Under the pieces are notes generated by a model. It worked only from the letters and a program-made list of their open reading frames with translations. It was not told the origin of the DNA and made no database searches. Source: Escherichia coli O157:H7 (lineage in GTDB: Bacteria > Pseudomonadota > Gammaproteobacteria > Enterobacterales > Enterobacteriaceae). Taken from it: a stretch of 64,000 bases of DNA. Where the stretch lies: the NCBI RefSeq assembly GCF_013167455.1, contig NZ_CP038328.1, one strand, 5' to 3'. A program made the position numbers and the translations under genes. Below, in pieces: positions 4,087-58,292 of the stretch. Position 1 is the first letter of the stretch; each line of letters opens with the position of its first letter.

Positions 4087-4494
4087 ATGGTCAACGCCAT
4101 TTTTTGTGCCCACGGCAAATTAGCTTGCGCCATGCTGGAATCGGTTCAGATGGTTTACGGCAACGCCAATGTTGAAGCCGTTGAATTTGTGCCCGGTGAA
4201 AACGCCGGAGACATCGTAGCAAAGCTGGAAAAATTAGTAAGCATTCACAATCAAAATGAGTGGCTGATTGCCGTGGATTTACAGTGCGGCAGCCCGTGGA
4301 ATGCGGCAGCGATGCTTGCGATGCGCAATCCTCGTCTGCGGGTAATCAGCGGACTTTCTCTGCCGCTGGCGCTCGAACTGGTTGATAACCAGGACAGCAT
4401 GAATGTTGATGAACTGTGTGAACACCTGACGCAAATCGCAAAGCAAACCTGCGTTGTCTGGAAACAACTGGCAACGACAGAGGAGGATTTCTGA
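4087..4494 (+). CDS. sorF: PTS mannose/sorbose-family EIIA component
   Basis: 135-aa ORF, EIIA-Man family size and context; RBS AAGGAGG at 4077-4083; stop overlaps sorB start by 1 nt. Confidence 0.82.
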   Translation: MVNAIFCAHGKLACAMLESVQMVYGNANVEAVEFVPGENAGDIVAKLEKLVSIHNQNEWLIAVDLQCGSPWNAAAMLAMRNPRLRVISGLSLPLALELVDNQDSMNVDELCEHLTQIAKQTCVVWKQLATTEEDF

Positions 4495-4988
4495 TGAACA
4501 TTACGCTCGCCCGCATTGATGACCGCCTGATCCACGGTCAGGTCACTACCGTCTGGTCGAAAGTGGCTAACGCCCAGCGCATTATTATCTGCAATGACGA
4601 AGTTTATAACGATGAAGTTCGCCGGACATTATTGCGTCAGGCTGCGCCACCGGGAATGAAGGTTAACGTGGTCAATATTGAAAAAGCCGTCGCGGTTTAT
4701 CACAACCCGCAATATCAGGACGAAACCGTTTTTTATCTTTTCACTCGCCCACAGGATGCCTTAGCGATGGTTCGCCAGGGGGTAAAAATAGGCACCCTGA
4801 ATATTGGCGGCATGGCCTGGCGGCCCGGTAAAAAACAGTTAACCAAAGCGGTTTCATTAGATGATGATGATATTAACGCATTTCATGAGTTAAATAATCT
4901 AGGCGTCATACTGGATTTACGCGTCGTAGCGTCAGATCCCTCAATCAATATTATCTACAAAATAAACGAACAGTTAATCGCAAATTAA
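4494..4988 (+). CDS. sorB: PTS mannose/sorbose-family EIIB component
   Basis: 164-aa ORF MNITLARIDDRLIHGQVTT... (EIIB-Man signature with phosphorylatable His in RLIHGQV); RBS AGGAGGA upstream. Confidence 0.88.
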   Translation: MNITLARIDDRLIHGQVTTVWSKVANAQRIIICNDEVYNDEVRRTLLRQAAPPGMKVNVVNIEKAVAVYHNPQYQDETVFYLFTRPQDALAMVRQGVKIGTLNIGGMAWRPGKKQLTKAVSLDDDDINAFHELNNLGVILDLRVVASDPSINIIYKINEQLIAN

Positions 4989-5053
4989 ATAATAGCGCCT
5001 GTGTACATATGCTTTAACAGGCAGGGATGACGACACTTAAAAGGTGACAAATC

Positions 5054-5851
5054 ATGGAAATAAGTACCCTACAAATCATTGCTATATTTCTTTTTTCCTG
5101 TATTGCCGGAATGGGCAGCGTGCTGGATGAATTTCAGACTCATCGCCCGTTAATTGCCTGTACGGTGATTGGTTTAATTCTCGGTGATTTAAAAACCGGA
5201 ATAATACTCGGTGGTACGCTGGAATTGATAGCTCTCGGCTGGATGAACGTCGGCGCGGCGCAATCTCCGGATTCTGCACTCGCCAGCATAATCTCCGCCA
5301 TTCTGGTTATCGTTGGTCAGCAAAGCATCGCCACCGGAATCGCCATCGCGTTGCCTGTGGCTGCGGCAGGCCAGGTGCTGACGGTGTTTGCCCGTACCAT
5401 CACCGTAGTGTTCCAGCACGCGGCGGATAAAGCAGCGGAAGAAGCACGGTTTCGCACTCTCGATATTCTGCATGTCTCCGCGCTTGGCGTGCAGGCGCTG
5501 CGCGTCGCCATTCCGGCACTGATTGTCTCGCTGTTCGTCAGCGCCGATATGGTGAGCAATATGTTAAACGCCATTCCCGAATTTGTGACCCGAGGTCTGC
5601 AAATTGCTGGCGGTTTTATCGTGGTAGTCGGTTACGCCATGGTGCTACGTATGATGGGCGTGAAATATTTGATGCCTTTCTTTTTCCTCGGTTTCCTCGC
5701 AGGTGGCTACCTCGATCTCAGTCTGCTGGCGTTCGGTGGCGTCGGCGTGATCATGGCCCTGGTCTACATCCAGCTAAATCCACAGTGGCGTAAAGCTGAA
5801 CCTCAACTCCTGGCCCCCGCTTCCACCGCCCTTGACCAACTTGACGATTAA
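5054..5851 (+). CDS. sorA: PTS mannose/sorbose-family EIIC membrane component
   Basis: 265-aa hydrophobic ORF, multiple TM segments, EIIC-Man family context. Confidence 0.85.
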   Translation: MEISTLQIIAIFLFSCIAGMGSVLDEFQTHRPLIACTVIGLILGDLKTGIILGGTLELIALGWMNVGAAQSPDSALASIISAILVIVGQQSIATGIAIALPVAAAGQVLTVFARTITVVFQHAADKAAEEARFRTLDILHVSALGVQALRVAIPALIVSLFVSADMVSNMLNAIPEFVTRGLQIAGGFIVVVGYAMVLRMMGVKYLMPFFFLGFLAGGYLDLSLLAFGGVGVIMALVYIQLNPQWRKAEPQLLAPASTALDQLDD

Positions 5852-5861
5852 CGGAGCCATC

Positions 5862-6686
5862 ATGGAACAGAGAAAAATTACACGCGGCGATCTGGTGAGC
5901 ATGTTTCTGCGCTCCAACCTGCAACAGGCGTCCTTTAACTTTGAACGTATTCACGGGCTGGGTTTTTGCTACGACATGATCCCCGCCATCAAGCGACTTT
6001 ACCCAGTAAAAGAGGATCAGGTTGCGGCGCTCAGGCGACACCTGGTGTTCTTTAATACCACGCCAGCCGTATGTGGCCCGGTCATCGGCGTCACTGCCGC
6101 CATGGAAGAGGCGCGGGCCAACGGCGCGGAAATTGATGACGGCACCATTAACGGCATCAAAGTCGGTCTGATGGGACCATTGGCAGGGGTTGGCGATCCA
6201 CTGGTCTGGGGAACGCTGCGCCCGATTACCGCCGCGCTCGGCGCATCGCTGGCGCTGTCTGGCAACATTCTCGGCCCGCTGCTGTTCTTCTTTATTTTCA
6301 ACGCGGTGCGTCTGGCGATGAAGTGGTATGGCCTACAGCTCGGCTTTCGCAAAGGGGTGAATATCGTCAGCGATATGGGCGGGAATGTGCTGCAAAAACT
6401 CACCGAAGGCGCGTCGATTCTCGGACTGTTTGTGATGGGCGTGCTGGTCACCAAATGGACGTCAATCAACGTACCGTTGGTGGTTTCACAAACGCATGCC
6501 GCCGATGGCTCCACCGTCACCATGACCGTGCAGAACATTCTCGATCAACTTTGCCCTGGTTTGCTGGCGCTCGGTCTGACGCTACTGATGGTTCGTCTGC
6601 TCAACAAAAAAATTAACCCGGTATGGCTGATTTTCGCCCTGTTTGGCTTAGGGATTATCGGCAATGCGCTGGGCTTCCTGTCCTGA
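5862..6686 (+). CDS. sorM: PTS mannose/sorbose-family EIID membrane component
   Basis: Start chosen at ATG 5862 (MEQRKITRGDL...) after GGAG; 274 aa, hydrophobic, EIID-Man family. Confidence 0.85.
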   Translation: MEQRKITRGDLVSMFLRSNLQQASFNFERIHGLGFCYDMIPAIKRLYPVKEDQVAALRRHLVFFNTTPAVCGPVIGVTAAMEEARANGAEIDDGTINGIKVGLMGPLAGVGDPLVWGTLRPITAALGASLALSGNILGPLLFFFIFNAVRLAMKWYGLQLGFRKGVNIVSDMGGNVLQKLTEGASILGLFVMGVLVTKWTSINVPLVVSQTHAADGSTVTMTVQNILDQLCPGLLALGLTLLMVRLLNKKINPVWLIFALFGLGIIGNALGFLS

Positions 6687-6737
6687 TTCTTCGCCCCGGC
6701 ACGACTGCCGGGGCCATCGTTCAACATGAGGTGGTTT

Positions 6738-7967
6738 ATGAAAACAACAGCTCTGCGTCTTTATGGTAAACGTGATTTACGCCTGGAAACCTTTGACCTT
6801 CCTGAAATGCAGGAGGATGAAATCCTCGCGACGGTGGTCACTGACAGCCTGTGCCTCTCTTCCTGGAAAGAGGCCAATCTGGGTGAAAACCATAAAAAAG
6901 TACCCGACGATGTGGCGACCAACCCAATCATCATCGGCCACGAGTTTTGCGGCGATATTCTGGCCGTGGGTAAAAAGTGGCAGCACAAATTCCAGCCGGG
7001 TCAGCGTTATGTGATTCAGGCCAACCTGCAACTCCCCGACCGCCCGGACTGCCCCGGCTACTCCTTCCCGTGGGTAGGCGGCGAGGCCACGCATGTGGTT
7101 ATTCCCAACGAGGTCATGGAACAAGATTGCCTGCTGGCATACGACGGCGAAACCTATTTTGAAGGCTCGCTGGTTGAACCGCTTTCCTGCGTGATTGGCG
7201 CGTTCAACGCCAACTATCATCTTCAGGAAGGTAGTTATAACCACACGATGGGGATTCGCCCGCAAGGGCGCATGCTGATCCTCGGCGGCACCGGACCAAT
7301 GGGACTGTTGGCGATTGATTATGCGCTACATGGACCCGTTAACCCGTCGCTGCTCGTCATTACCGATACCGACAACGATAAATTGAGTTATGCGCGCAAG
7401 CACTATCCATCAGAACCGCAAACACTGATTCATTATCTCAATGCCGCCGATGCAGCATTTGATACGCTAATGGCGCTGAGTGGCGGTCACGGCTTCGATG
7501 ATATTTTCGTCTTTGTGCCTAATGAAGGACTGGTGACTCTCGCCTCTTCCTTGCTGGCGACAGATGGTTGCCTGAATTTCTTCGCCGGACCGCAGGATAA
7601 ACATTTCAGCGCGCCAATTAATTTCTACGATGTGCATTATGCATTTACCCACTACGTGGGCACGTCAGGCGGCAATACCGACGACATGCGCGCAGCGGTC
7701 AAATTGATTGAAGAGAAAAAAGTGCAGGCCGCAAAAGTGGTAACACATATTCTTGGGCTGAATGCCGCGGGCGAAACCACGCTTGAATTGCCTGCCGTCG
7801 GCGGCGGCAAAAAGCTGGTGTATACCGGGAAATACCTGCCGCTGACGTCACTCACGCAGATTCAGGATCAAGCACTGGCGGCGATTCTGGCGCGTCATCA
7901 GGGGATCTGGTCCGGTGAGGCGGAGCAATATCTGCTCACTCATGCAGAGGCAATTTCCCATGATTAA
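6738..7967 (+). CDS. sorE: L-sorbose-1-phosphate reductase (zinc-type medium-chain dehydrogenase)
   Basis: Start chosen at ATG 6738 (MKTTALRLYGKRDLRLETF...) after GAGGTGG; 409 aa, MDR fold with GHEFCG motif. Confidence 0.83.
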   Translation: MKTTALRLYGKRDLRLETFDLPEMQEDEILATVVTDSLCLSSWKEANLGENHKKVPDDVATNPIIIGHEFCGDILAVGKKWQHKFQPGQRYVIQANLQLPDRPDCPGYSFPWVGGEATHVVIPNEVMEQDCLLAYDGETYFEGSLVEPLSCVIGAFNANYHLQEGSYNHTMGIRPQGRMLILGGTGPMGLLAIDYALHGPVNPSLLVITDTDNDKLSYARKHYPSEPQTLIHYLNAADAAFDTLMALSGGHGFDDIFVFVPNEGLVTLASSLLATDGCLNFFAGPQDKHFSAPINFYDVHYAFTHYVGTSGGNTDDMRAAVKLIEEKKVQAAKVVTHILGLNAAGETTLELPAVGGGKKLVYTGKYLPLTSLTQIQDQALAAILARHQGIWSGEAEQYLLTHAEAISHD

Positions 7968-8127
7968 TCGCGCTACTTAACTCTGCATGTCGCTGGCTGG
8001 TCACCGCGGCAACTTCGCGACCTGATGTGCGGCTGATTGCTGAAGCGGCCCAATGTGCACGAGAAGGATAAAAAAACATCAGCGCCTTAAGGGGCGCTCA
8101 AATTGGTGGCAAAGTACACATTGTTTA

Positions 8128-8226
8128 TGCCGGATGCGGAATAAAGCCTTATTCGGCCTACATAATCTCGAAAATTCAATATATTGCAGTTATCTGGTAG
8201 GCCTGGTAAGCGTAGCGCATCAGGCA
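8128..8226. repeat. pair of oppositely oriented REP-like palindromic units (BIME-like) downstream of sorE
   Basis: GCCGGATGCGGAATAAAGCCTTATTCGGCCTAC at 8128-8162 and GTAGGCCTGGTAAGCGTAGCGCATCAGGC at 8197-8226. Confidence 0.75.
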
Positions 8227-8349
8227 ATGCTGTGTTTGTCATCAGTCTCAGCGCCCGGTGCAATACGTGACATCGTGAGCCATGTCAGTAAGTGGTTAAA
8301 TTCGCAGTGGTAGCATGCCTTCCGTGATTTCTTACTAACCGGAGAAGTA

Positions 8350-9039
8350 ATGGAACTGCTTTTATTGAGTAACTCGACGCTGCCGGGTAAAGCCTGGCTG
8401 GAACATGCACTGCCGCTGATTGCTGAACAGTTGCAGGGTCGCCGCTCAGCGGTGTTTATCCCTTTCGCTGGCGTAACGCAGACCTGGGATGATTACACAG
8501 CGAAAACGGCTGCGGTTCTCGCTCCGCTGGGTGTTTCTGTCACCGGTATTCATAGCGTTGTCGATCCCGTTGCCGCGATTGAAAATGCGGAAATTGTGAT
8601 TGTCGGCGGCGGTAATACTTTCCAGTTGCTGAAACAGTGCCGCGAGCGCGGGCTGCTGGCTCCAATTACTGACGTGGTTAAACGTGGCGCGCTGTATATT
8701 GGCTGGAGCGCAGGCGCTAACCTTGCTTGCCCAACCATTCGTACCACCAACGATATGCCGATTGTCGATCCGCAAGGTTTCGATGCGCTAAATCTGTTCC
8801 CGTTGCAAATCAACCCGCACTTCACCAACGCGCTGCCGGAAGGCCATAAAGGTGAAACCCGTGAGCAGCGTATTCGCGAACTGCTGGTCGTCGCGCCAGA
8901 ACTGACGATTATTGGTCTACCGGAAGGTAACTGGATCACAGTGAGTAAAGGTCACGCAACGCTGGGTGGCCCGAATACCACCTATGTGTTTAAGGCCGGT
9001 GAAGAAGCGGTTCCGCTGGAAGCTGGTCACCGTTTTTAA
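8350..9039 (+). CDS. pepE: alpha-aspartyl dipeptidase (peptidase E)
   Basis: 229-aa [33 protein letters not shown]... matches PepE. Confidence 0.93.
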
Positions 9040-9046
9040 GTGAATT

Positions 9047-9116
9047 GCCGGATGCATGATCCGGCATCTTGTTCATAGTGCCTGATGCGACGCTTGACGC
9101 GTCTTATCAGGCCTAC
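9047..9116. repeat. hairpin plus REP element between convergent pepE and yjbB
   Basis: GCCGGATGCATGATCCGGC hairpin at 9047-9065, REP unit GCCTGATGCGACGCTTGACGCGTCTTATCAGGCCTAC at 9080-9116. Confidence 0.75.
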
Positions 9117-9129
9117 AGGATTCACAATA

Positions 9130-10761
9130 TTAATACTCGTCCCGTCCCTCATCTTCATCAGGCTGTTCCAGCACACTGTAAGCCACCGAACAAAACAGCG
9201 AGTTCAGACGCTGCATATCTCCCAGTAAGCCTAAATGTAGCGAACTGGTTTCAATGCTTTGCACGTTTTGCTGATGCAGGCGATCGACGTGGGCGTGGGA
9301 ATAGCGGCGATTAAGAATGCGAAAGCGATGCTTGCTGCGGCGCAAACGACGAGCGCTGGTGACATCGCCAGAGAAGAACACCGACATTGCCAGCTTTAAA
9401 TTACTGAGCAATTGCTCATAGAGCGCATCCAGTTCCTTCAAGCCATCAAGCGAAAATGCTCGCCTTGCAGCCAGCGATTTGTCGGCAATTTCACTACTCA
9501 TGCGCTCGACGATATCGGAGGCCTGTTCAAGGTTGAGCGACATTTCGATGATCTCCGCCCAGCGGCGCGACTCTTCTTCTGCCAGTTCCTCTTTTGGCAT
9601 CCGCGCCAGATACAGCTTAATGGCGGTATAGAGAACGTTGATATCATCTGCCAGCTTACGCAGCTCTTTCTCCTGCCTTGGCTCGCCGTGCATCACTTTA
9701 TTCAGCCCTTCCATCATCTGTTCCATGGCGTCGCCAATGCGCAGGGTTTCGCGCGCGGCGTTCGCCAGAGCAAGCGTGGGCGTATCCAGCGCGCTGACAT
9801 CCAGATGTTTAGGCCGTAGCTGGGTATCCAGTTCCGGTTCATCGCGAATAATCGTTTTGCAAAACCGTGCCATCGGGTCAACAAATGGCAGCATGGCCAG
9901 GCAACGTACAAGGTTGTAGAAGACGTGGAAATAGATCACCAGTTCCGCTTTTGGCAATGACAACTTCCCCATTGTCTCTGCCAGCAAATGGACAAACGGC
10001 AGGATAATCAGGCTACCCACCAGCTTAAACAGCAGACTACCCAGCGCGACACGGCGGGCTGCGGCATTGGCGGCACTGTTGTTGAGCATCGCCAGCAGGC
10101 CGGAACCGAGGTTAGCACCAATCACCAGACAGAGCGCCACGGGGAAGGAGATAATGCCTGCGGCGGTCAGAGTCGCGGTCAGCAGTACAGCAGCAAGGCT
10201 GGAGTAGCTGATAATGGCGAACATCGCGCCAATCAGCGCATCCAGCAGAATATCGCCGGTCAGCGAGGCAAAGATCACCTGAACGCCGTTTGCCTGGGTG
10301 ATCGGCGTTACGGCCTGCACAATCAACTCCAGCGCCAGCAAAATCAGCCCAAGACCAATACCGACGCGGCCCAGTTGCCCGGCGCGTGACTGTTTGCGTC
10401 CGAGGAAAAAAATCACGCCGATAAAAATAAGTAACGGTGACAGCCAGGATAAGTCGAAGGTGAGAATACGCGCCATTAGCGCCGTCCCGACATCTGCCCC
10501 CAGCACAATGACCAGAGCCGGTGCGAGGGCTACCAGATCCTGAGCGACGAACGAGGTCACCAGCATGGTGGTGGCATTACTGCTCTGTACCAGTGCGGTA
10601 ACGCCGATCCCCGCGCAAAAGGCGAGCGGCTTTTTTTCGACGCTCCGGCTAAGGACAGTACGCAAACGCGCGCCGAAGACGCGCATTACGCCGGTTCGAA
10701 CAATATGAGTCCCCCAGACCAGCAGGGCGACGGCAGAAAGCAGGTTAAGCAGCGTTAACAC
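9130..10761 (-). CDS. yjbB: Na/Pi-cotransporter-family membrane protein with PhoU-like domains
   Basis: 543-aa ORF, hydrophobic N-terminal half, PhoU-like C-terminal half; conserved position next to metH. Confidence 0.88.
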   Translation of the reverse strand: MLTLLNLLSAVALLVWGTHIVRTGVMRVFGARLRTVLSRSVEKKPLAFCAGIGVTALVQSSNATTMLVTSFVAQDLVALAPALVIVLGADVGTALMARILTFDLSWLSPLLIFIGVIFFLGRKQSRAGQLGRVGIGLGLILLALELIVQAVTPITQANGVQVIFASLTGDILLDALIGAMFAIISYSSLAAVLLTATLTAAGIISFPVALCLVIGANLGSGLLAMLNNSAANAAARRVALGSLLFKLVGSLIILPFVHLLAETMGKLSLPKAELVIYFHVFYNLVRCLAMLPFVDPMARFCKTIIRDEPELDTQLRPKHLDVSALDTPTLALANAARETLRIGDAMEQMMEGLNKVMHGEPRQEKELRKLADDINVLYTAIKLYLARMPKEELAEEESRRWAEIIEMSLNLEQASDIVERMSSEIADKSLAARRAFSLDGLKELDALYEQLLSNLKLAMSVFFSGDVTSARRLRRSKHRFRILNRRYSHAHVDRLHQQNVQSIETSSLHLGLLGDMQRLNSLFCSVAYSVLEQPDEDEGRDEY

Positions 10762-16004: not shown

Positions 16005-19896
<3,892 letters not shown>

Positions 19897-19919
19897 TTAG
19901 CGCCCTCATCAGGAGCAGA

Positions 19920-20065
19920 GAATTGCCGGATGCGGCGTAAACGCCTTATCCAGCCTACGTTCGGCAACGGTTGTAGGCATGATAAGACGCGCAAGCGTCG
20001 CATCAGGCATCGTGCACCGATTGCCGGATGCGGCGTATATGCCTTATCCGGCCTACAGTCAGCAA
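19920..20065. repeat. cluster of three REP units (BIME) in aceK-aceA intergenic region
   Basis: GCCGGATGCGGCGTAAACGCCTTATCCAGCCTAC, inverted GTAGGCATGATAAGACGCGCAAGCGTCGCATCAGGC, and GCCGGATGCGGCGTATATGCCTTATCCGGCCTAC. Confidence 0.85.
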
Positions 20066-20079
20066 CGTTTGTAGGTTGC

Positions 20080-33447: not shown

Positions 33448-34769
33448 CGCGACAATTTTGCCAACAGCGTTTTGCGCGTGATCCCTAACTGACGGGCGGC
33501 TTCGGTTTTGTTGCCGCCCGTTTTCTCCAGTGCCGCCAGAATCACTTCTTTTTCGACTTCCACCAGCGGCTGAATATCCAGGCTTTGTGCCAGCGGGATC
33601 GGCGTACTGGCAATCGCCAGCGGCAGCTCGCGTTCGGAAATATATTCCCCAGTCAGCAGCACCACCGCCCGTTCCACCGCATTTTCCAGTTCACGAATAT
33701 TTCCCGGCCAGTCGTAATGAATCAACAGATCCATCGCCTGGGGCGTAAAGCCTTTTACCGCCTTGCGATTACGTTCAGCAAAGCGCTGCAGAAAATGGCC
33801 AGCCAGCAGAGGAATATCTTCCCGCCGTTGCCGCAGCGATGGTACTTCAATCGCCACCACGTTCAGGCGATAGTAGAGATCCTGGCGAAAACGCCCGGCA
33901 TTCACCTCTGCGGCAAGATCGCGATGGGTCGCGGCAATCAGCCGGACATCAACCGAAATAGTCTGGTTGCTACCGACACACTGAACTTCGCGCTCCTGAA
34001 TCGCACGCAGCAGACGCACCAGCATCATCGGCGAGATATCGCCAATTTCATCGAGAAACAACGTGCCGCCGTCCGCCTCAACAAAGCGCCCTTCCCGGCG
34101 TTTATCGGCTCCAGTAAACGCCCCTTTTTCGTGACCGAACAATTCAGATTCCAGCAAGGATTCGTTGAGTGCCGCACAGTTGAGCGTTACCAGCGGTTTT
34201 TCGCTACGTGCGCTACTGGCGTGAATCGCCCTGGCGACCAGCTCTTTACCGGTGCCGGAATCGCCGTGGATCAGCACCGTGGCTTCCGATGGCGCGACGA
34301 GGGCGATTTCACTGAGCAGGTGTTGCATCGCCGGGCTTTTACCGACCATACCGAACTGGCTGGCAGTCACCGCAGGCGTTTCAGCATCAATAATGTGCGT
34401 ATGCGCGAGCGCCTTTTCCAGCGTCGCCTGCAGGTTATCGAAATCCAGCGGCTTGATGAGATAATCCAGCGCCCCGGTTTTCAACGCCTCTACCGCCGTC
34501 TCGACGCTAGAGTATGCGGTCATAATCAGTACCGGAATCGCCGGATTTAACGCTTTGATCTCTTTTAGCGTGGCAATGCCGTCCATCTCCGCCATTCGCA
34601 CATCGCAAAGCACAAGATCAAAAACCCGCTCCCGCACCTGCTCCAGCGCCTGTCGCCCGCTGTTCGCCAGCGCGACGTTATAGCCCCAGCCGCGCAGCAA
34701 AGCCTGCAAAATAGTGCAGTGGCTAATGTCATCATCCACCACCAGAATATCGATATTATCGTGCGTCAT
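33444..34769 (-). CDS. zraR: sigma54-dependent response regulator ZraR
   Basis: 441-aa ORF with receiver domain, AAA+ sigma54-activator core (GESGTGKE-type Walker A, GAFTGA) and C-terminal HTH. Confidence 0.93.
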   Translation of the reverse strand: MTHDNIDILVVDDDISHCTILQALLRGWGYNVALANSGRQALEQVRERVFDLVLCDVRMAEMDGIATLKEIKALNPAIPVLIMTAYSSVETAVEALKTGALDYLIKPLDFDNLQATLEKALAHTHIIDAETPAVTASQFGMVGKSPAMQHLLSEIALVAPSEATVLIHGDSGTGKELVARAIHASSARSEKPLVTLNCAALNESLLESELFGHEKGAFTGADKRREGRFVEADGGTLFLDEIGDISPMMLVRLLRAIQEREVQCVGSNQTISVDVRLIAATHRDLAAEVNAGRFRQDLYYRLNVVAIEVPSLRQRREDIPLLAGHFLQRFAERNRKAVKGFTPQAMDLLIHYDWPGNIRELENAVERAVVLLTGEYISERELPLAIASTPIPLAQSLDIQPLVEVEKEVILAALEKTGGNKTEAARQLGITRKTLLAKLSR

Positions 34770-36142
34770 CCTTGTGGGTCCTTACGCGTAATATTGACCG
34801 GAAGCCAGAGGGTGAACCTTGCGCCTTTTCCCTCCAGGCTTGCGACCTGAATTGTACCACCGTGTTGTTCAACAATATTATGCACGACCGCCAGCCCCAG
34901 TCCGGTGCCTTCGGCTTTGGTGGTGAAGTACGGGGTGAAGATGGCTTCAAGCTGATCTGCCGCAATTCCCTTACCGCTGTCGGTAACGCTGATTTTCACG
35001 CCCGCGCCGCTTTCGCTGGCCGTCACGCTAATCACGCCATGCTGACCAATCGCCTGAATAGCATTGAGATAAAGATTCAACAGGACCTGAGTCAGCCTGT
35101 CCGGATCGGCCTGAATTTCCGGCAACGTGTCGTTGGCGGTAAAGCGTAACTGGATCTCCCGGCAGTTTGCATCCTGGCTTACCAGCTGTAATGAGTGGTT
35201 AATCAGCGTGTTGAGATCCACCGCCTGCAAAGCCAGATGCGTTGGCTTAACCAGTTCCAGCAGCTCGCTTACCACGCGGTTTAAACGGTCAGCTTCTTTC
35301 GCCATCACCTGCGCCAGTTGATGCGCTTCTCCCCCTGCTGGCGCGCGCTCGGCAAAGTATTTTGCCAGCCCTTTAATCGAGGAAAGCGGGTTACGAATTT
35401 CGTGGGCAACGCCTGCCGCAAGATGCCCCAGCGCCACCAGCTTCTCTTTGCGCTTCATTTCATCTTGTAGAAGCTGGCGCGAGCGCAGATAGCGGCGATA
35501 CCAGAAGAATGACAATACGCTTGCCAGCAAGACCGTCGCCAGGGCGAAGAGGATAATCAGGGTGTTTCTCTGCTCACGATCTTCGGCACTCACAATATTA
35601 CTGGCGTCGAAAGCGATGAAAATTGCTTGTGGTGTCGCGGCATACTGCTGCATATGGCGCATCCGGTGCATTCCAGCAGCAAACATCGGTTGAAACTGGC
35701 GATAAATTTCCAGAACAGGCTCGCCGTCTGCGCTATCGATCCGCCGCCACACTTCTTCATCTCCCGGATGTAACTGCTGCATTTCCTGCGGGGAATAAAG
35801 CTGTTTTCCCACCATGCCGGAGTTGCTATGCATCACGATTGTTCCTTGTTCATCCGTGACCGCAAACCAACGTACTCCAGGCTGCCCGGCCATTTCTTCC
35901 AGTAAGGCCTGCTGCTGCGCATGATGCATGCGCATCCCCATGCCGACGCGCGAGCCGGATTCGAGAGCACGAATAAGTACACTGCCTTTTTCCAGCAGCG
36001 TTTGTCTGGCGGCGGCAGTCTCGCGGCCATAATCGCGAATCACCGTCACCGCAAACAACCCTACCAGCCCAACAATGACCACGGGGAGGATCGCGCTTAA
36101 CCATTTAGCTAAGGAGTCTTTAGAACGTTGCATAAAACGCAT
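34766..36142 (-). CDS. zraS: sensor histidine kinase ZraS
   Basis: 458-aa ORF with two TM segments and HisKA/HATPase domains (LAAGVAHEIRNPL); 4-bp overlap with zraR. Confidence 0.92.
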   Translation of the reverse strand: MRFMQRSKDSLAKWLSAILPVVIVGLVGLFAVTVIRDYGRETAAARQTLLEKGSVLIRALESGSRVGMGMRMHHAQQQALLEEMAGQPGVRWFAVTDEQGTIVMHSNSGMVGKQLYSPQEMQQLHPGDEEVWRRIDSADGEPVLEIYRQFQPMFAAGMHRMRHMQQYAATPQAIFIAFDASNIVSAEDREQRNTLIILFALATVLLASVLSFFWYRRYLRSRQLLQDEMKRKEKLVALGHLAAGVAHEIRNPLSSIKGLAKYFAERAPAGGEAHQLAQVMAKEADRLNRVVSELLELVKPTHLALQAVDLNTLINHSLQLVSQDANCREIQLRFTANDTLPEIQADPDRLTQVLLNLYLNAIQAIGQHGVISVTASESGAGVKISVTDSGKGIAADQLEAIFTPYFTTKAEGTGLGLAVVHNIVEQHGGTIQVASLEGKGARFTLWLPVNITRKDPQG

Positions 36143-36173
36143 CTTCTTCTTTGCCTGCTCATCCCTTTCTGAC

Positions 36174-36189
36174 AGCAGAAATCATGCCA
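36174..36189 (-). promoter_or_regulatory. sigma54 promoter for zraSR
   Basis: Minus strand TGGCATGATTTCTGCT with consensus -24 GG / -12 GC spacing. Confidence 0.65.
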
Positions 36190-36240
36190 TCTTTTATCAG
36201 CGCTTACCCTGCGCTGTAACACAAAGGCTTAAGTTTCAAT

Positions 36241-36286
36241 GAGTAAAAATGACTCGCTACCCGCAGCAGGCGAGTCATTTTTACTC
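36241..36286. promoter_or_regulatory. ZraR enhancer: 17-bp inverted repeat between divergent sigma54 promoters
   Basis: GAGTAAAAATGACTCGC ... GCGAGTCATTTTTACTC, perfect arms separated by 12 bp. Confidence 0.75.
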
Positions 36287-36328
36287 GTTTATCATGCCAG
36301 ATTACCCGTCATATCAGCGTTTCATCGT

Positions 36329-36344
36329 TGGCACGGAAGATGCA
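36329..36344 (+). promoter_or_regulatory. sigma54 promoter for zraP
   Basis: TGGCACGGAAGATGCA, exact -24/-12 spacing. Confidence 0.75.
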
Positions 36345-36379
36345 ATACCCGAAGTAAGACAACCACTGGAGGATTAACC

Positions 36380-36805
36380 ATGAAACGGAACACGAAAATT
36401 GCCCTGGTAATGATGGCGCTTTCAGCAATGGCGATGGGATCGACATCTGCATTTGCTCACGGCGGACACGGTATGTGGCAGCAAAATGCCGCGCCTTTGA
36501 CCAGCGAACAACAGACAGCGTGGCAGAAAATCCATAATGACTTTTACGCTCAAAGCAGCGCACTGCAACAGCAACTGGTGACGAAGCGTTATGAATACAA
36601 TGCCCTGTTAGCCGCGAACCCACCGGATAGCAGCAAAATTAACGCGGTCGCCAAAGAGATGGAGAATTTGCGTCAGTCGTTAGATGAGTTACGGGTGAAA
36701 CGGGATATTGCGATGGCTGAAGCGGGTATTCCGCGCGGAGCCGGAATGGGCATGGGCTACGGCGGCTGCGGTGGTGGCGGTCATATGGGTATGGGCCACT
36801 GGTAA
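36380..36805 (+). CDS. zraP: zinc-resistance-associated periplasmic protein ZraP
   Basis: Start at ATG 36380 after GGAGG; MKRNTKIALVMMALSAMAMGSTSAFA signal peptide, Gly/Met/His-rich C-terminus; 141 aa. Confidence 0.9.
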   Translation: MKRNTKIALVMMALSAMAMGSTSAFAHGGHGMWQQNAAPLTSEQQTAWQKIHNDFYAQSSALQQQLVTKRYEYNALLAANPPDSSKINAVAKEMENLRQSLDELRVKRDIAMAEAGIPRGAGMGMGYGGCGGGGHMGMGHW

Positions 36806-36806
36806 A

Positions 36807-37508
36807 TCAGAACGTTTTCTCGTTGGGTTGCCAGCGACAGAAATCAGAGTTTGCCACTAACAGTAATTGCGAACCTTCGGGCGCTTCCAGCCATGCCACG
36901 CTGACATCAACAGAAGAGCGGCTCTGGCGGCGCTCGATATGCGCTATTGCCTGCGAATCTAAATCAGGTTTAATGGTTTGCCCTTCGCAGGTGGTCACGG
37001 TCTGTTCCATCGCATGCCAGCGCCCCTGGCGCAGCACGACTCTCCCCTGACGTAAGGCATCGCTAATCTGGCGGATCTGATCAGCCCGATAACGGTATAA
37101 ATCGATTTGGTCGTTAGAAAGCTGCTGCTTTTCCCCATCGGATTCACGTTGCATAAAGCTCAGATCACCGCGATCGTCAAAACGCGCGCGAATATTCACC
37201 GGGGGTTTGCTGTAAACATTGATATTGATGAGCGTGAGGTTATCGCCCTGCCAGCGATACTCTCGCGTCGTGGTATCGCCACTGCGCCACGGGCTAAACA
37301 CGGCAAGAAAATGCACATTATCGCCGCTGTCTTTTCGCCAGATGCGTACCGCGCCCTGGTCTTCAGCAAATCCACTGGCGGTAAAGGGAGGAAGTGAAGA
37401 GTTGTGACTACAAGCAGTGAGAAACAGAGCGCCAGCCAGCATCAATGATCGACGCCAGAAAGACAAAAGGGGTGAAACCACCCCTTCGTTAAAACTGTTC
37501 ACTGCCAC
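36807..37508 (-). CDS. yjaH: DUF1481-family putative lipoprotein YjaH
   Basis: 233-aa ORF with N-terminal signal/lipobox-like LTAC; conserved position between zraP and hupA. Confidence 0.8.
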   Translation of the reverse strand: MAVNSFNEGVVSPLLSFWRRSLMLAGALFLTACSHNSSLPPFTASGFAEDQGAVRIWRKDSGDNVHFLAVFSPWRSGDTTTREYRWQGDNLTLININVYSKPPVNIRARFDDRGDLSFMQRESDGEKQQLSNDQIDLYRYRADQIRQISDALRQGRVVLRQGRWHAMEQTVTTCEGQTIKPDLDSQAIAHIERRQSRSSVDVSVAWLEAPEGSQLLLVANSDFCRWQPNEKTF

Positions 37509-37514
37509 GCAATC

Positions 37515-37787
37515 TTACTTAACTGCGTCTTTCAGTGCCTTGCCAGAAACAAATGCCGGTACGTTAGCTGCGGCAATTTTGATTTCTTTACCGGTCTGCG
37601 GGTTGCGGCCAGTACGCTCAGCGCGGTGGTTCACTTTGAAGGTACCGAAACCAACCAGTTGTACAGCATCGCCTTCTTTCAGAGACTCAGTAATTGCAGC
37701 CAGAGTGGACTCCAGAGCAGCTTTAGCCTGGGTTTTGGACAGTTCTGCTTTCTCTGCAATTACATCAATCAGTTGAGTCTTGTTCAT
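37515..37787 (-). CDS. hupA: DNA-binding protein HU-alpha
   Basis: 90-aa [93 protein letters not shown]. Confidence 0.97.
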
Positions 37788-37973
37788 AAGTTATCCTTAC
37801 AATGTGTTTATCGCTTGCTAAGCATCGAGTGCGACGGAAATGCCAGAATAGCACTCTCCTGCATACACGCACCGATAGCCACTTTTTTTCGCCCCCCAAA
37901 TGTAGACCAGACGGGGGGCGAAAGGGAAGACTCCAGGTACGACAAATCAGGCGTTAAATCACGTTTTCTGGTC

Positions 37974-38564
37974 TTATTGCTGAAAAATTATACCAATATT
38001 GCTCTCATCCGCCTCACGCAGGTCTGCCCTAAGGCCTTTTATCAGCTCGATATCGCGTTCTTCGCACTCAGCTAAAAGTCGGAATATTTCCCACTGAATG
38101 TCCCATTCTTGCTCTACAGCTGGGTTTTCTTTGAGCTCTTCATCGCTCATTTCGCGACCAGCCTGAGTCATTTCCAGCATCGCAACGGTCGTGATGGAGG
38201 TCTTACTCACTTCCACCGCGTGTTCGAGCGTTTCACCACTCAAACGCGAATGGACCAGTTCACTTAACGCCACGCAGGCATCGATTGCCGGATAAACGCC
38301 GTACAGATCGAAATCGTCGGCTGAAGGAATCGCTTCTTCAAATTTCTCCAGTTGGCTGTCGAAATTTACTTTTGCATCTTTAACGGTCAGCGTTTCCCAG
38401 ATGAGATCGAGAATACGACGGTAAATTTGCCCATCACCAAAACCGGTTTGCTGGCAGAACATGGCGTAATTGGGGTACATGCGTTCGCATAAGCAAGCCA
38501 TGAAAGTGACATGCTGCCAGCTTTCCAGGCGTTCCAGACGCAGATGAATTGGGTTTTGTAACAT
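37974..38564 (-). CDS. yjaG: DUF416-family protein YjaG
   Basis: 196-aa ORF, conserved position between nfi and hupA. Confidence 0.85.
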   Translation of the reverse strand: MLQNPIHLRLERLESWQHVTFMACLCERMYPNYAMFCQQTGFGDGQIYRRILDLIWETLTVKDAKVNFDSQLEKFEEAIPSADDFDLYGVYPAIDACVALSELVHSRLSGETLEHAVEVSKTSITTVAMLEMTQAGREMSDEELKENPAVEQEWDIQWEIFRLLAECEERDIELIKGLRADLREADESNIGIIFQQ

Positions 38565-38606
38565 GTTGAGTTCTCAAATACGGAAATTATCCGCAGTTTA
38601 CCTGAA

Positions 38607-39278
38607 TTAGGGCTGATTTGCTGTATAGCGCACGAACGCCGGACGTTCCGAGGCCACCGCGTCCGCCCAGCGCGTTGGCTCCGGCAGACGATAGCCTTTC
38701 ATGCAGCGTTGTACCCACGCCAGCGCGCTGTCCACGCTGACCCGATGACCAGTAGCGATAAATAGCGGGTTACAGCGCGCTTTGCTGCGCCAGACCCAGG
38801 CCAGCTGCTCGCCTTTATCCATCAGTGGGGCCAGCGCGCCCGGTTCGCTGGAGAGCGGTTCGAATTTACCGCATAGTCGTTTTTTCGCTACGCCAATGGT
38901 CGGCACATCCACCAGCAAACCAAAATGGCTGGCGACGCCAAGACGGCGAGGATGCGAGATCCCATGACCATCGACAAACACTAAATCCGGCTTTTGTGAC
39001 AGCATCTCCCACGCTGCCAGCAGCGCAGGATATTCGCGGAAGGAAAGAAAACCTGGAATGTAAGGCATGGTGGTAGCGATGCGGGCCACTTTATACTCCA
39101 CCAGCTCAAGCGAGGGGTATTTCAGCAGCACCATCGCCGCTCGCGTCACTTCTCCGCCCTGCTCAAACCCGACATCGGCTCCGGCGATCAGATCCGGCGG
39201 ATCCTTATCGAGTCGATCCTCGCGGATCACAGAAGAAGCCAGTTCGATTTGTTGAGCGCGTAATGACGCGAGATCCAT
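38607..39278 (-). CDS. nfi: endonuclease V
   Basis: 223-aa [26 protein letters not shown]... matches endonuclease V. Confidence 0.93.
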
Positions 39279-39287
39279 AATCGCTCC

Positions 39288-52723: not shown

Positions 52724-55700
52724 TTACTCGTCTTCCAGTTCGATGTTGATACCCAGCGAACGAATCTCTTTCAACAATACGTTGAAGGATTCTGGCATGC
52801 CCGGCTCCATCTGATGGTTGCCGTCCACGATGTTTTTATACATCTTAGTACGACCGTTCACGTCATCAGACTTAACGGTGAGCATTTCCTGCAGGGTGTA
52901 TGCTGCGCCGTATGCTTCCAGCGCCCACACTTCCATCTCCCCGAAACGCTGACCACCGAACTGTGCCTTACCACCCAGCGGCTGCTGAGTAACCAGGCTG
53001 TAAGAACCGGTGGAACGCGCGTGCATCTTGTCGTCGACCAGGTGGTTCAGTTTCAGCATGTACATGTAACCAACGGTTACCGGACGTTCGAACTGTTCAC
53101 CAGTGCGGCCGTCGTACAGGCGGATCTGACCAGAAGTCGGCAGGTCGCCAAGTTTCAGCAGCTCTTTAATTTCTGCTTCTTTCGCACCGTCGAACACCGG
53201 CGTTGCGATTGGCATACCTTTGCGCAGGTTTTCAGCCAGACGCATAACTTCTTCATCGCTGAAGGTACTCAGGTCAACTTTCTGACGAACGTCAGCGCCC
53301 AGATCGTACGCACGCTGGATGAATTCACGCAGTTTCGCGACTTCCTGCTGCTGTTTCAGCATGGCGTTGATCTTGTCGCCGATACCTTTCGCAGCCATAC
53401 CCAAGTGGGTTTCGAGGATCTGACCGATGTTCATACGAGACGGTACGCCCAGCGGGTTCAGTACGATGTCTACCGGCGTACCGTTTTCATCGTAAGGCAT
53501 ATCTTCGATCGGGTTGATCTTAGAAATTACACCCTTGTTACCGTGACGACCTGCCATCTTGTCACCAGGCTGGATACGGCGTTTAACCGCCAGATATACC
53601 TTAACAATCTTCAGCACGCCCGGTGCCAGATCGTCGCCCTGGGTGATTTTGCGGCGTTTCGCTTCGAGTTTCTTCTCGAACTCGTGTTTCAGTTCGTCAT
53701 ACTGCTCAGCCAGCTGTTCCAGCTGATTTTGTTTCTCTTCGTCGGTCAGGCCCAGCTCCAGCCAGCGATCGCGCGGCAATTTGTCGAGCTTCTCAGCTTC
53801 AACGCCACCGGCTACCAGCACAGCACGGATACGGCTGAACAGACCCGCTTCGAGGATCTGCAGTTCTTCAGACAGGTCTTTCTTCGCCTGTTTGAGCTGC
53901 ATTTCTTCGATTTCCAGCGCACGTTTGTCTTTTTCTACGCCATCGCGAGTAAAGACCTGAACGTCGATAACCGTACCGGATACACCGTTTGGTACGCGCA
54001 GAGAAGAGTCTTTAACGTCAGACGCTTTCTCACCGAAGATCGCACGCAGCAGTTTTTCTTCTGGGGTCAGCTGAGTTTCACCTTTCGGCGTAACCTTACC
54101 AACCAGAATGTCGCCACCGGTCACTTCCGCACCAATATAAACGATACCGGATTCATCCAGTTTGGAGAGCGCAGCTTCACCCACGTTCGGGATGTCAGCG
54201 GTGATCTCTTCTGGCCCCAGCTTGGTGTCACGGGACACACACGCCAGTTCCTGAATGTGGATGGTGGTGAAACGGTCTTCCTGAACAACACGCTCGGATA
54301 CGAGGATGGAGTCTTCGAAGTTGTAACCATTCCACGGCATGAACGCTACGCGCATGTTCTGACCAAGCGCCAGTTCACCGAGGTCGGTGGACGGACCGTC
54401 TGCCAGCACGTCGCCACGTTCAACCGGTTCACCCAGAGACACACACGGCATCTGGTTAATACAGGTGTTCTGGTTAGAACGGGTGTATTTGGTCAGGTTG
54501 TAGATGTCGATACCTGCTTCACCCGGATACATCTCGTCTTCGTTAACTTTGATAACGATACGGGAAGCATCCACGTACTGAACGACACCACCACGTTTAG
54601 CAACCGCAGTTACACCGGAGTCAACGGCAACAGCACGTTCCATACCAGTACCAACCAGCGGCTTATCAGCACGCAGAGTCGGAACGGCCTGACGTTGCAT
54701 GTTCGCACCCATCAATGCACGGTTGGCGTCATCGTGTTCCAGGAACGGGATCAGGGACGCACCGACGGATACCACCTGCTGGGTGGATACGTCCATGTAG
54801 TCAACCTGGTCACGGCTGAACAAGCTGGATTCGCCTTTGCTACGGCAGGTTACCAGGTCTTCTACGAAGTGGCCTTCTTCATCCAGGTTGGAGTTCGCCT
54901 GGGCGATAACGTAGTTGCCTTCTTCGATAGCAGACAGGTAGTGAATTTCGTCAGTTACAACACCGTCAGTCACTTTACGATACGGAGTCTCAAGGAAGCC
55001 GTATTCGTTAGTCTGTGCGTACACGGACAGAGAGTTGATCAGACCGATGTTCGGACCTTCAGGGGTTTCGATTGGACATACGCGACCGTAGTGAGTCGGG
55101 TGTACGTCTCGAACTTCGAAGCCTGCACGTTCACGGGTCAGACCGCCTGGGCCGAGTGCGGAGATACGACGTTTGTGCGTAATCTCAGACAGCGGGTTGT
55201 TCTGGTCCATAAACTGAGACAGCTGGCTGGAACCGAAGAACTCTTTCACTGCTGCGGAAATCGGCTTGGCGTTGATCATATCCTGAGGCATCAGGGTATC
55301 CAGATCGCCCAGAGACAGACGCTCTTTCACCGCACGCTCTACACGTACCAGGCCAACGCGGAACTGGTTTTCCGCCATTTCGCCAACGGAACGGATACGA
55401 CGGTTGCCGAGGTGGTCGATATCATCGACTTCGCCTTTACCGTTACGGATATCGATGAGCTTTTTCATAACATCAATGATGTCGTCTTTGCTCAGGATAC
55501 CAGAACCTTCGATTTCTTCGCGCAGCAGAGAACGGTTGAACTTCATACGACCAACCGCAGACAGGTCATAACGGTCTTCGGAGAAGAACAGGTTCTCGAA
55601 CAGGCTTTCCGCTGCTTCACGAGTCGGCGGCTCGCCAGGGCGCATCATGCGGTAGATTTCTACCAGTGCGCTCAGACGGTCGTTAGTTGGGTCGACACGT

Positions 55701-56752
55701 AAGGTTTCAGAGATATACGGGCCGTGATCCAGATCATTGGTGAACAGCGTTTCGATACGCTTGTGACCAGACTGGCTCAGCTTAGCCAGCAGATCCAGGC
55801 TCAGCTCCATGTTCGCTGCGCAGATCAGCTCGCCGGTAGACTCATCAATATAGTCTTTAGCAACCACTTTACCTGCGATGTACTCAACCGGGACTTCGAT
55901 CAGTTTGACGTCGTCTTTTTCCAGCTGGCGAATGTGGCGCGCAGTGATACGGCGGCCTTTTTCTACGTACACTTTACCGTTAGCTTCGATGTCAAAGGAT
56001 GCGGTTTCACCACGCAGGCGTTCCGGCACCAGTTCCATCTGCAGCTTGTTATCACGGATTTCAAAGATAACTTTTTCAAAGAACAGGTCGAGGATCTGCT
56101 CTGTGGTGTAGTTCAGGGCACGCAGAATGATGGTCGCAGGCAGTTTACGGCGACGGTCGATACGTACGAACAGGTTGTCCTTCGGATCGAATTCGAAGTC
56201 CAGCCAGGAACCACGGTAAGGGATGATGCGCGCGTTATACAGCACTTTACCCGAAGAGTGGGTTTTACCTTTGTCGGAGTCAAAGAAGACGCCCGGACTA
56301 CGGTGCAGCTGGGAAACGATAACACGCTCAGTACCGTTGATAACAAAGGTACCGTTGTCTGTCATGAGCGGAATTTCGCCCATGTAGACTTCTTGTTCTT
56401 TAATGTCTTTTACGGTGCCTTCCGGCGCTTCGCGCTCATAGATCACCAGACGCAGTTTAACGCGCAGCGGTGCGGAATAGGTCACGCCACGGATTTGACA
56501 TTCCTGGACGTCAAACACCGGTTCGCCAAGGCGGTAGCTGACGTATTGCAGCTCGGAATTACCGCTGTAGCTCTGAATCGGGAATACGGAACGGAAAGCA
56601 GCTTCCAGACCATACTGCCCTTCAGGATCTTGCTCGATAAATTTCTGAAACGAGTCAAGCTGGATAGAAAGGAGATAAGGTACATCCAGAACTTGTGGAC
56701 GTTTACCAAAATCCTTACGAATACGTTTTTTCTCGGTATAGGAGTAAACCAT
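52724..56752 (-). CDS. rpoB: RNA polymerase beta subunit
   Basis: Start at ATG giving [20 protein letters not shown]... (1342 aa); rifampicin-resistance cluster I reads wild type. Confidence 0.98.
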
Positions 56753-56999
56753 AGGGTTCCTCAGCTCGCTGACAAGTCGACCCATCTGTCCATTGAGCGG
56801 ACAGTTTGTGCAACACTATTTTGTTGACCGGAAAATGGAACACTTTCCGCAATGCCTGTTGCTATCACGCTTAAACCATTTCATTGCGATTTACACAGAA
56901 CGGACGTCCTGTCGCAGTATATTAAGTCGTCGATAGAAACAAGCATTGAAAGGCACAGCAGTAGTCAAACAGTGTGAAACGCTACTGGTGCCTTACAGC

Positions 57000-57055
57000 G
57001 CAAAAAGGCTGGTGACTAAAAAGTCACCAGCCATCAGCCTGATTTCTCAGGCTGC
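57000..57055 (-). terminator. rplL-rpoB intercistronic attenuator hairpins
   Basis: Minus strand after rplL stop: CAGCCTGAGAAATCAGGCTG then GCTGGTGACTTTTTAGTCACCAGCC followed by TTTTTGCGC. Confidence 0.75.
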
Positions 57056-57071
57056 AACCGGAAGGGTTGGC

Positions 57072-58001: not shown

Positions 58002-58292
58002 TAGCTTTGCTCCTGGATGTTTGCCAGAGAAAATCTCTGGAACTCACTTCACTCCTCCAAACGGAGAGAGCGTCTTAATTACGGTGAGCAGAAACAAGCC
58101 AGAATATAAAAGAATAATCTTAGCGTTCTGTCACCGTCTACGCAGGGGATTAAGTTTCTTGCGAAACTCCTGCGGTCTTCGACGGAGGCCTGGATAGGCC
58201 AGGCTCCAACGAACAAATCTTTTTAGCTGCTAACTTTCGTTAGCATACGTGGGGGTAAGATTGTAGACAAAATCACCGCCCACGTAAAGGCA
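58002..58292 (-). promoter_or_regulatory. rplJ leader region (L10 promoter and L10-L12 autoregulatory RNA site expected here)
   Basis: 291-nt untranslated interval between rplA and rplJ; candidate promoter TTACGT-N16-TACAAT on minus strand near 58240-58270; functional assignment from knowledge of the operon. Confidence 0.5.

Follow-up and report, generated by a model that had tools for sequence, protein, structure and literature searches.

Does the rpoB gene of this Escherichia coli O157:H7 chromosome encode the standard rifampicin-sensitive target, and do its resistance-determining codons read as wild type throughout? The question arises from a stretch of 64,000 nucleotides on contig NZ_CP038328.1, hereafter the window, in which a sequence-only reading had reported a 33-residue RpoB peptide carrying the canonical residues D516, H526 and S531. 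The passage of PMC3975073 that cites Campbell et al. [quoted passage not shown] The limits of the resistance clusters used here were taken from PMC11084559, in which cluster I comprises residues 507-533, cluster II residues 563-572 and cluster III residue 687; in that work, the sensitive wild type of the rifampicin fluctuation assays is MG1655.

[quoted passage not shown] At its full extent, the minus-strand open reading frame (ORF) runs over 52724..56785 (4062 nt), reaching an in-frame ATG 11 codons 5′ of 56752. This upstream ATG at 56785 was dropped as a candidate start, since the K-12 annotation uses the equivalent of 56752 and a Shine-Dalgarno-like GAGGA (56758..56762, minus strand) lies 5 nt upstream of that codon. 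The choice between 56785 and 56752 has no effect on the RpoB residue numbers used here and, because the coding sequence from 56752 has 1342 codons as in K-12, E. coli numbering is directly applicable.

The identity of the product as a beta subunit follows from its domain set, its full-length match to the characterised E. coli beta subunit and its position in rplKAJL-rpoBC. All six Pfam beta-subunit domains (RNA_pol_Rpb2_1, _2, _3, _45, _6 and _7) were detected in the translation above their curated cut-offs, with E-values ranging from 9e-136 to 6e-26. The best match in the Protein Data Bank (PDB) is the full-length E. coli beta chain, represented by 353 entries and aligned over residues 1-1342 on both sides, and the annotation of O157:H7 strain PV15-279 names the same gene rpoB, with protein WP_000263098.1.

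The gene was compared position by position with its counterpart in K-12 MG1655 (NC_000913.3; rpoB b3987, protein NP_418414.1). Pairwise alignment of the whole proteins returned 1342 identical residues out of 1342 at equal length, and neither a non-synonymous change nor an in-frame indel relative to MG1655 was found across all RpoB residues. At the nucleotide level the two genes are 99.2% identical, differing at 31 positions that are all synonymous; none of the 31 falls within codons 490-594, and the difference closest to codon 687 is a synonymous one at codon 694. The K-12 gene shares with that of the window its protein, start codon, length, placing between rplL and rpoC and resistance-site codons, whereas the 31 synonymous differences, none of them in clusters I or II, are typical of the divergence between O157:H7 and K-12.

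The 33-residue peptide corresponds to RpoB residues 506-538 and, as read from the translation of 55130..55240, is encoded at 55139..55237 on the minus strand. It was found letter for letter, with D516, H526 and S531 specified by the same codons as in K-12. The interval originally given for it, 55150-55240, was approximate, as its authors had said, with ends lying 11 nt and 3 nt off the true ones; the locus was correctly set inside rpoB, but the strand had been left out, the gene being on the minus strand. Cluster I, the 81-bp RRDR encoding residues 507-533 (55154..55234, minus strand), is the same as in K-12 in both amino acids and nucleotides, and codon comparison with K-12 within it yields the wild-type codons GAC for D516 (55205..55207), CAC for H526 (55175..55177) and TCC for S531 (55160..55162), all on the minus strand. 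Cluster II (residues 563-572; 55037..55066, minus strand) is likewise wild type, identical to K-12 in amino acids and nucleotides. On the same strand, the cluster III codon for R687 (CGT, 54692..54694) and the codon of the N-terminal rifampicin-resistance site V146 (GTT, 56315..56317) are wild type by codon comparison with K-12. The RpoB alignment with K-12 that had been proposed as a check thus turned up no substitution in cluster I, II or III (0 differences). Since the protein is identical to that of K-12 throughout, all published rifampicin-resistance positions are wild type, whichever list is consulted. A chance origin of the peptide would not be plausible, lying as it does inside an ORF whose predicted product matches K-12 RpoB at every one of its 1342 residues and carries the six Pfam domains.

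The same allele is widespread in closely related strains. We recovered rpoB at an identity of at least 95% in 5420 of 5426 complete E. coli genomes, the top matches (100%) being O157:H7 strains. In O157:H7 genomes such as PV15-279, the gene is 100% nucleotide-identical over the 4062-nt ORF, without a single difference; the 64-kb window, taken as its reverse complement, aligns collinearly with PV15-279 over its whole length at approximately 99.9% identity, and a 23-kb sub-segment of the window is matched at 100.0% identity in O157:H7 FRIK1989 and others. The 99-nt segment encoding the peptide has the same nucleotides in 3728 of the 5420 genomes; the other 1692 carry one or more changed bases. 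Three of these 1692 variants were sampled: two are annotated as WP_000263098.1, the protein of the window allele, and the third translates to an identical peptide. The natural variation so sampled (3 of 1692) is synonymous and does not reflect resistance alleles, in keeping with the strong constraint expected on a drug pocket. In complete E. coli assemblies, two of the approximately 5420 rpoB matches come from plasmid-labelled records, some genomes show two or three rpoB places, and six genomes have no match; these plasmid-labelled, multiple and absent matches may be assembly or labelling oddities.

Sequence identity, gene context and domain content were established directly on the window, and published work supplies the account of where rifampicin binds and how it inhibits. 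According to that work, the residues of clusters I and II, together with R687 and V146, line the rifampicin pocket in the beta subunit, and bound rifampicin stands in the way of the growing RNA. Resistance usually results from substitutions of pocket residues that lower drug binding, of which the window allele carries none. Structures of resistant enzymes offer a point of comparison. The PDB search placed 5UAL, 5UAQ and 5UAH in separate near-identical groups, and also returned a Thermus aquaticus chain, 1I6V; the passage of PMC11364244 that draws on Molodtsov et al. (2017) assigns 5UAC to the wild-type E. coli enzyme, 5UAH to D516V, 5UAQ to H526Y and 5UAL to S531L. These resistant mutants share with the RpoB of the window the same protein and pocket, in chains of 1342 residues, but in the window residues 516, 526 and 531 are D, H and S. 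Because it equals K-12 RpoB at the pocket sites, the encoded polymerase should respond to rifampicin like the K-12 enzyme. Judged from its sequence, the gene almost certainly is a wild-type rpoB encoding the same protein as sensitive K-12 MG1655, and its polymerase should bind rifampicin and be inhibited normally. The earlier prediction that the chromosome is rifampicin-sensitive at rpoB is supported, given the identity with the K-12 protein throughout, and its wording was rightly confined to that gene.

This confinement matters, because a wild-type target alone is not proof of whole-cell susceptibility, to which modifying enzymes, permeability and efflux also contribute. With a wild-type rpoB, the strain might still be resistant through a determinant elsewhere, such as an arr ADP-ribosyltransferase gene on a plasmid or integron, another rifamycin-modifying enzyme, for instance a phosphotransferase or a monooxygenase, or a change in envelope or efflux. 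The window shows 64 kb of a genome of roughly 5.5 Mb, and resistant isolates lacking mutations in the sequenced clusters may, according to PMC11084559, use a mechanism outside rpoB. Against this, the annotation of the collinear O157:H7 region contains no rifamycin-modifying enzyme, with neither arr, rph, rox nor any other rifamycin-resistance gene besides rpoB annotated within the 64-kb window, and the claim under scrutiny was expressly restricted to rpoB. Non-rpoB determinants of rifamycin resistance are uncommon in O157:H7, and wild-type E. coli is itself only moderately susceptible to rifampicin owing to its outer membrane. Resistance by such a route is on balance very unlikely. Even smaller, to the point of being negligible, is the probability that the peptide was misread or stems from a second, diverged or plasmid-borne copy instead of the functional chromosomal gene. 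Extra copies do occasionally exist, as the 2 of approximately 5420 places on plasmids and the genomes with 2-3 places attest, but the rpoB of the window is full length and intact and sits in the canonical rplKAJL-rpoBC operon, flanked by tufB-secE-nusG on one side and the thi operon on the other, and the ORF list shows no other ORF of that size in this portion of the window. Both the misreading and the second copy are refuted for the window, whose rpoB is the single canonical chromosomal copy in its normal operon.

A different kind of alternative concerns the opposite strand, on which several long ORFs run antisense to rpoB and rpoC. Over rpoB, the ORF list contains plus-strand frames of 1062 amino acids (52514..55702) and 367 amino acids (55724..56827), and over rpoC two more plus-strand frames, at 48550..50961 and 51013..52554. 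The 1062-codon frame might conceivably be a real translated overlapping gene, adding a second coding layer over the resistance region, yet the antisense ORFs sit in the codon-aligned frame, in which stops occur only opposite sense TTA, CTA or TCA codons. In rpoB there is one such codon only (TTA, codon 351, window position 55702), and it marks the exact end of the 1062-amino-acid ORF; rpoC has four, two of which (window positions 52554 and 50961) coincide with ends of antisense ORFs. The 1062-amino-acid antisense product has no Pfam match, and none of the 31 nucleotide differences from K-12 changes an amino acid in the frame of rpoB, as constraint on rpoB alone would give. Avoidance of TTA, CTA and TCA codons in rpoB explains all features of the antisense ORFs that were checked. 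A genuine overlapping gene is accordingly extremely unlikely, and the antisense ORFs were rejected as genes and regarded as codon-bias shadow ORFs of highly expressed genes.

The wild-type rpoB is embedded in a conserved setting. From upstream to downstream, the context reads coaA-tRNAs-tufB-secE-nusG-rplKAJL-rpoBC, and all proteins from CoaA to RpoC equal their K-12 counterparts. Directly 3′ of rpoB in the operon lies rpoC (48424..52647, minus strand), encoding the beta′ subunit, whose direct translation is identical to K-12 at 1407 of 1407 residues, with 22 synonymous differences and no amino-acid changes. RpoC is a place where compensatory changes can occur. The intergenic region between rplL and rpoB (56753..57071, minus strand; 319 nt) shows one mismatch to K-12.

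Read off the collinear O157:H7 annotation, the gene order along the minus strand begins with birA (partial), coaA, thrU-tyrU-glyT-thrT, tufB, secE, nusG, rplK, rplA, rplJ, rplL, rpoB and rpoC, and continues after rpoC with a yjaZ-like ORF, thiHGSFEC, rsd, nudC, hemE, nfi, yjaG, hupA, yjaH, zraPSR and purDH. Beyond purDH lie an rrn operon, yjaB, metA, aceBAK, espL4, iclR, metH, yjbB and pepE, followed by a sorbose PTS operon, rluF, yjbD and lysC.

The window holds several other features. In the spacer between rplA and rplJ, at approximately 58224..58244 on the minus strand, about 142 bp of the K-12 MG1655 sequence are missing and about 21 unrelated bases stand in their place, the spacer measuring 291 nt in the window versus 412 nt in K-12. 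The yjaZ homologue 3′ of rpoC (47768..48211, minus strand) is diverged and shorter than K-12 YjaZ (179 aa), of which only residues 1-136 align to it, at 94% identity; the O157:H7 annotation describes the ORF as a 444-nt hypothetical protein, and position 47823 within it is one of the few mismatches between the window and PV15-279. Farther along, the spacer between aceA and aceK (19897..20079) spans 183 nt versus 85 nt in O157:H7 PV15-279 and includes several copies of a palindromic unit, GCCGGATAAGGCR...CGCCGCATCCGGCA, that resemble REP elements; on the sequences compared, the difference in length appears to reflect varying numbers of repeat copies among O157:H7 strains. Between aceK and iclR, a plus-strand ORF of 728 amino acids (16005..18191) carries, in O157:H7, the annotation of a type III secretion effector, EspL4; it converges on the aceK ORF (18160..19896, minus strand), and the 3′ ends of the two overlap by about 30 nt. 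For the regions at approximately 34254..41800 and 4250..10000, known from the collinear O157:H7 annotation only, the features listed are a TPP riboswitch 5′ of thiC, the zinc-response system zraPSR, a complete rrn operon that includes tRNA-Glu and, flanked by pepE and rluF, an L-sorbose PTS/sorE operon of seven genes.

The feature examined here, the wild-type rifampicin-resistance-determining region of E. coli rpoB, was already known; it is correctly recognized and ordinary, with nothing novel about it, and its worth is that of a clean negative for annotation and resistance prediction, not of a discovery. Spontaneous rifampicin-resistant rpoB derivatives often serve as marked strains, and the present genotype indicates that this strain is not one of them. 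It is also free of any pleiotropic polymerase mutation in rpoB or rpoC with possible effects on transcription. The genotype call is a routine one, with the target of rifampicin in this O157:H7 chromosome represented by the standard sensitive allele.
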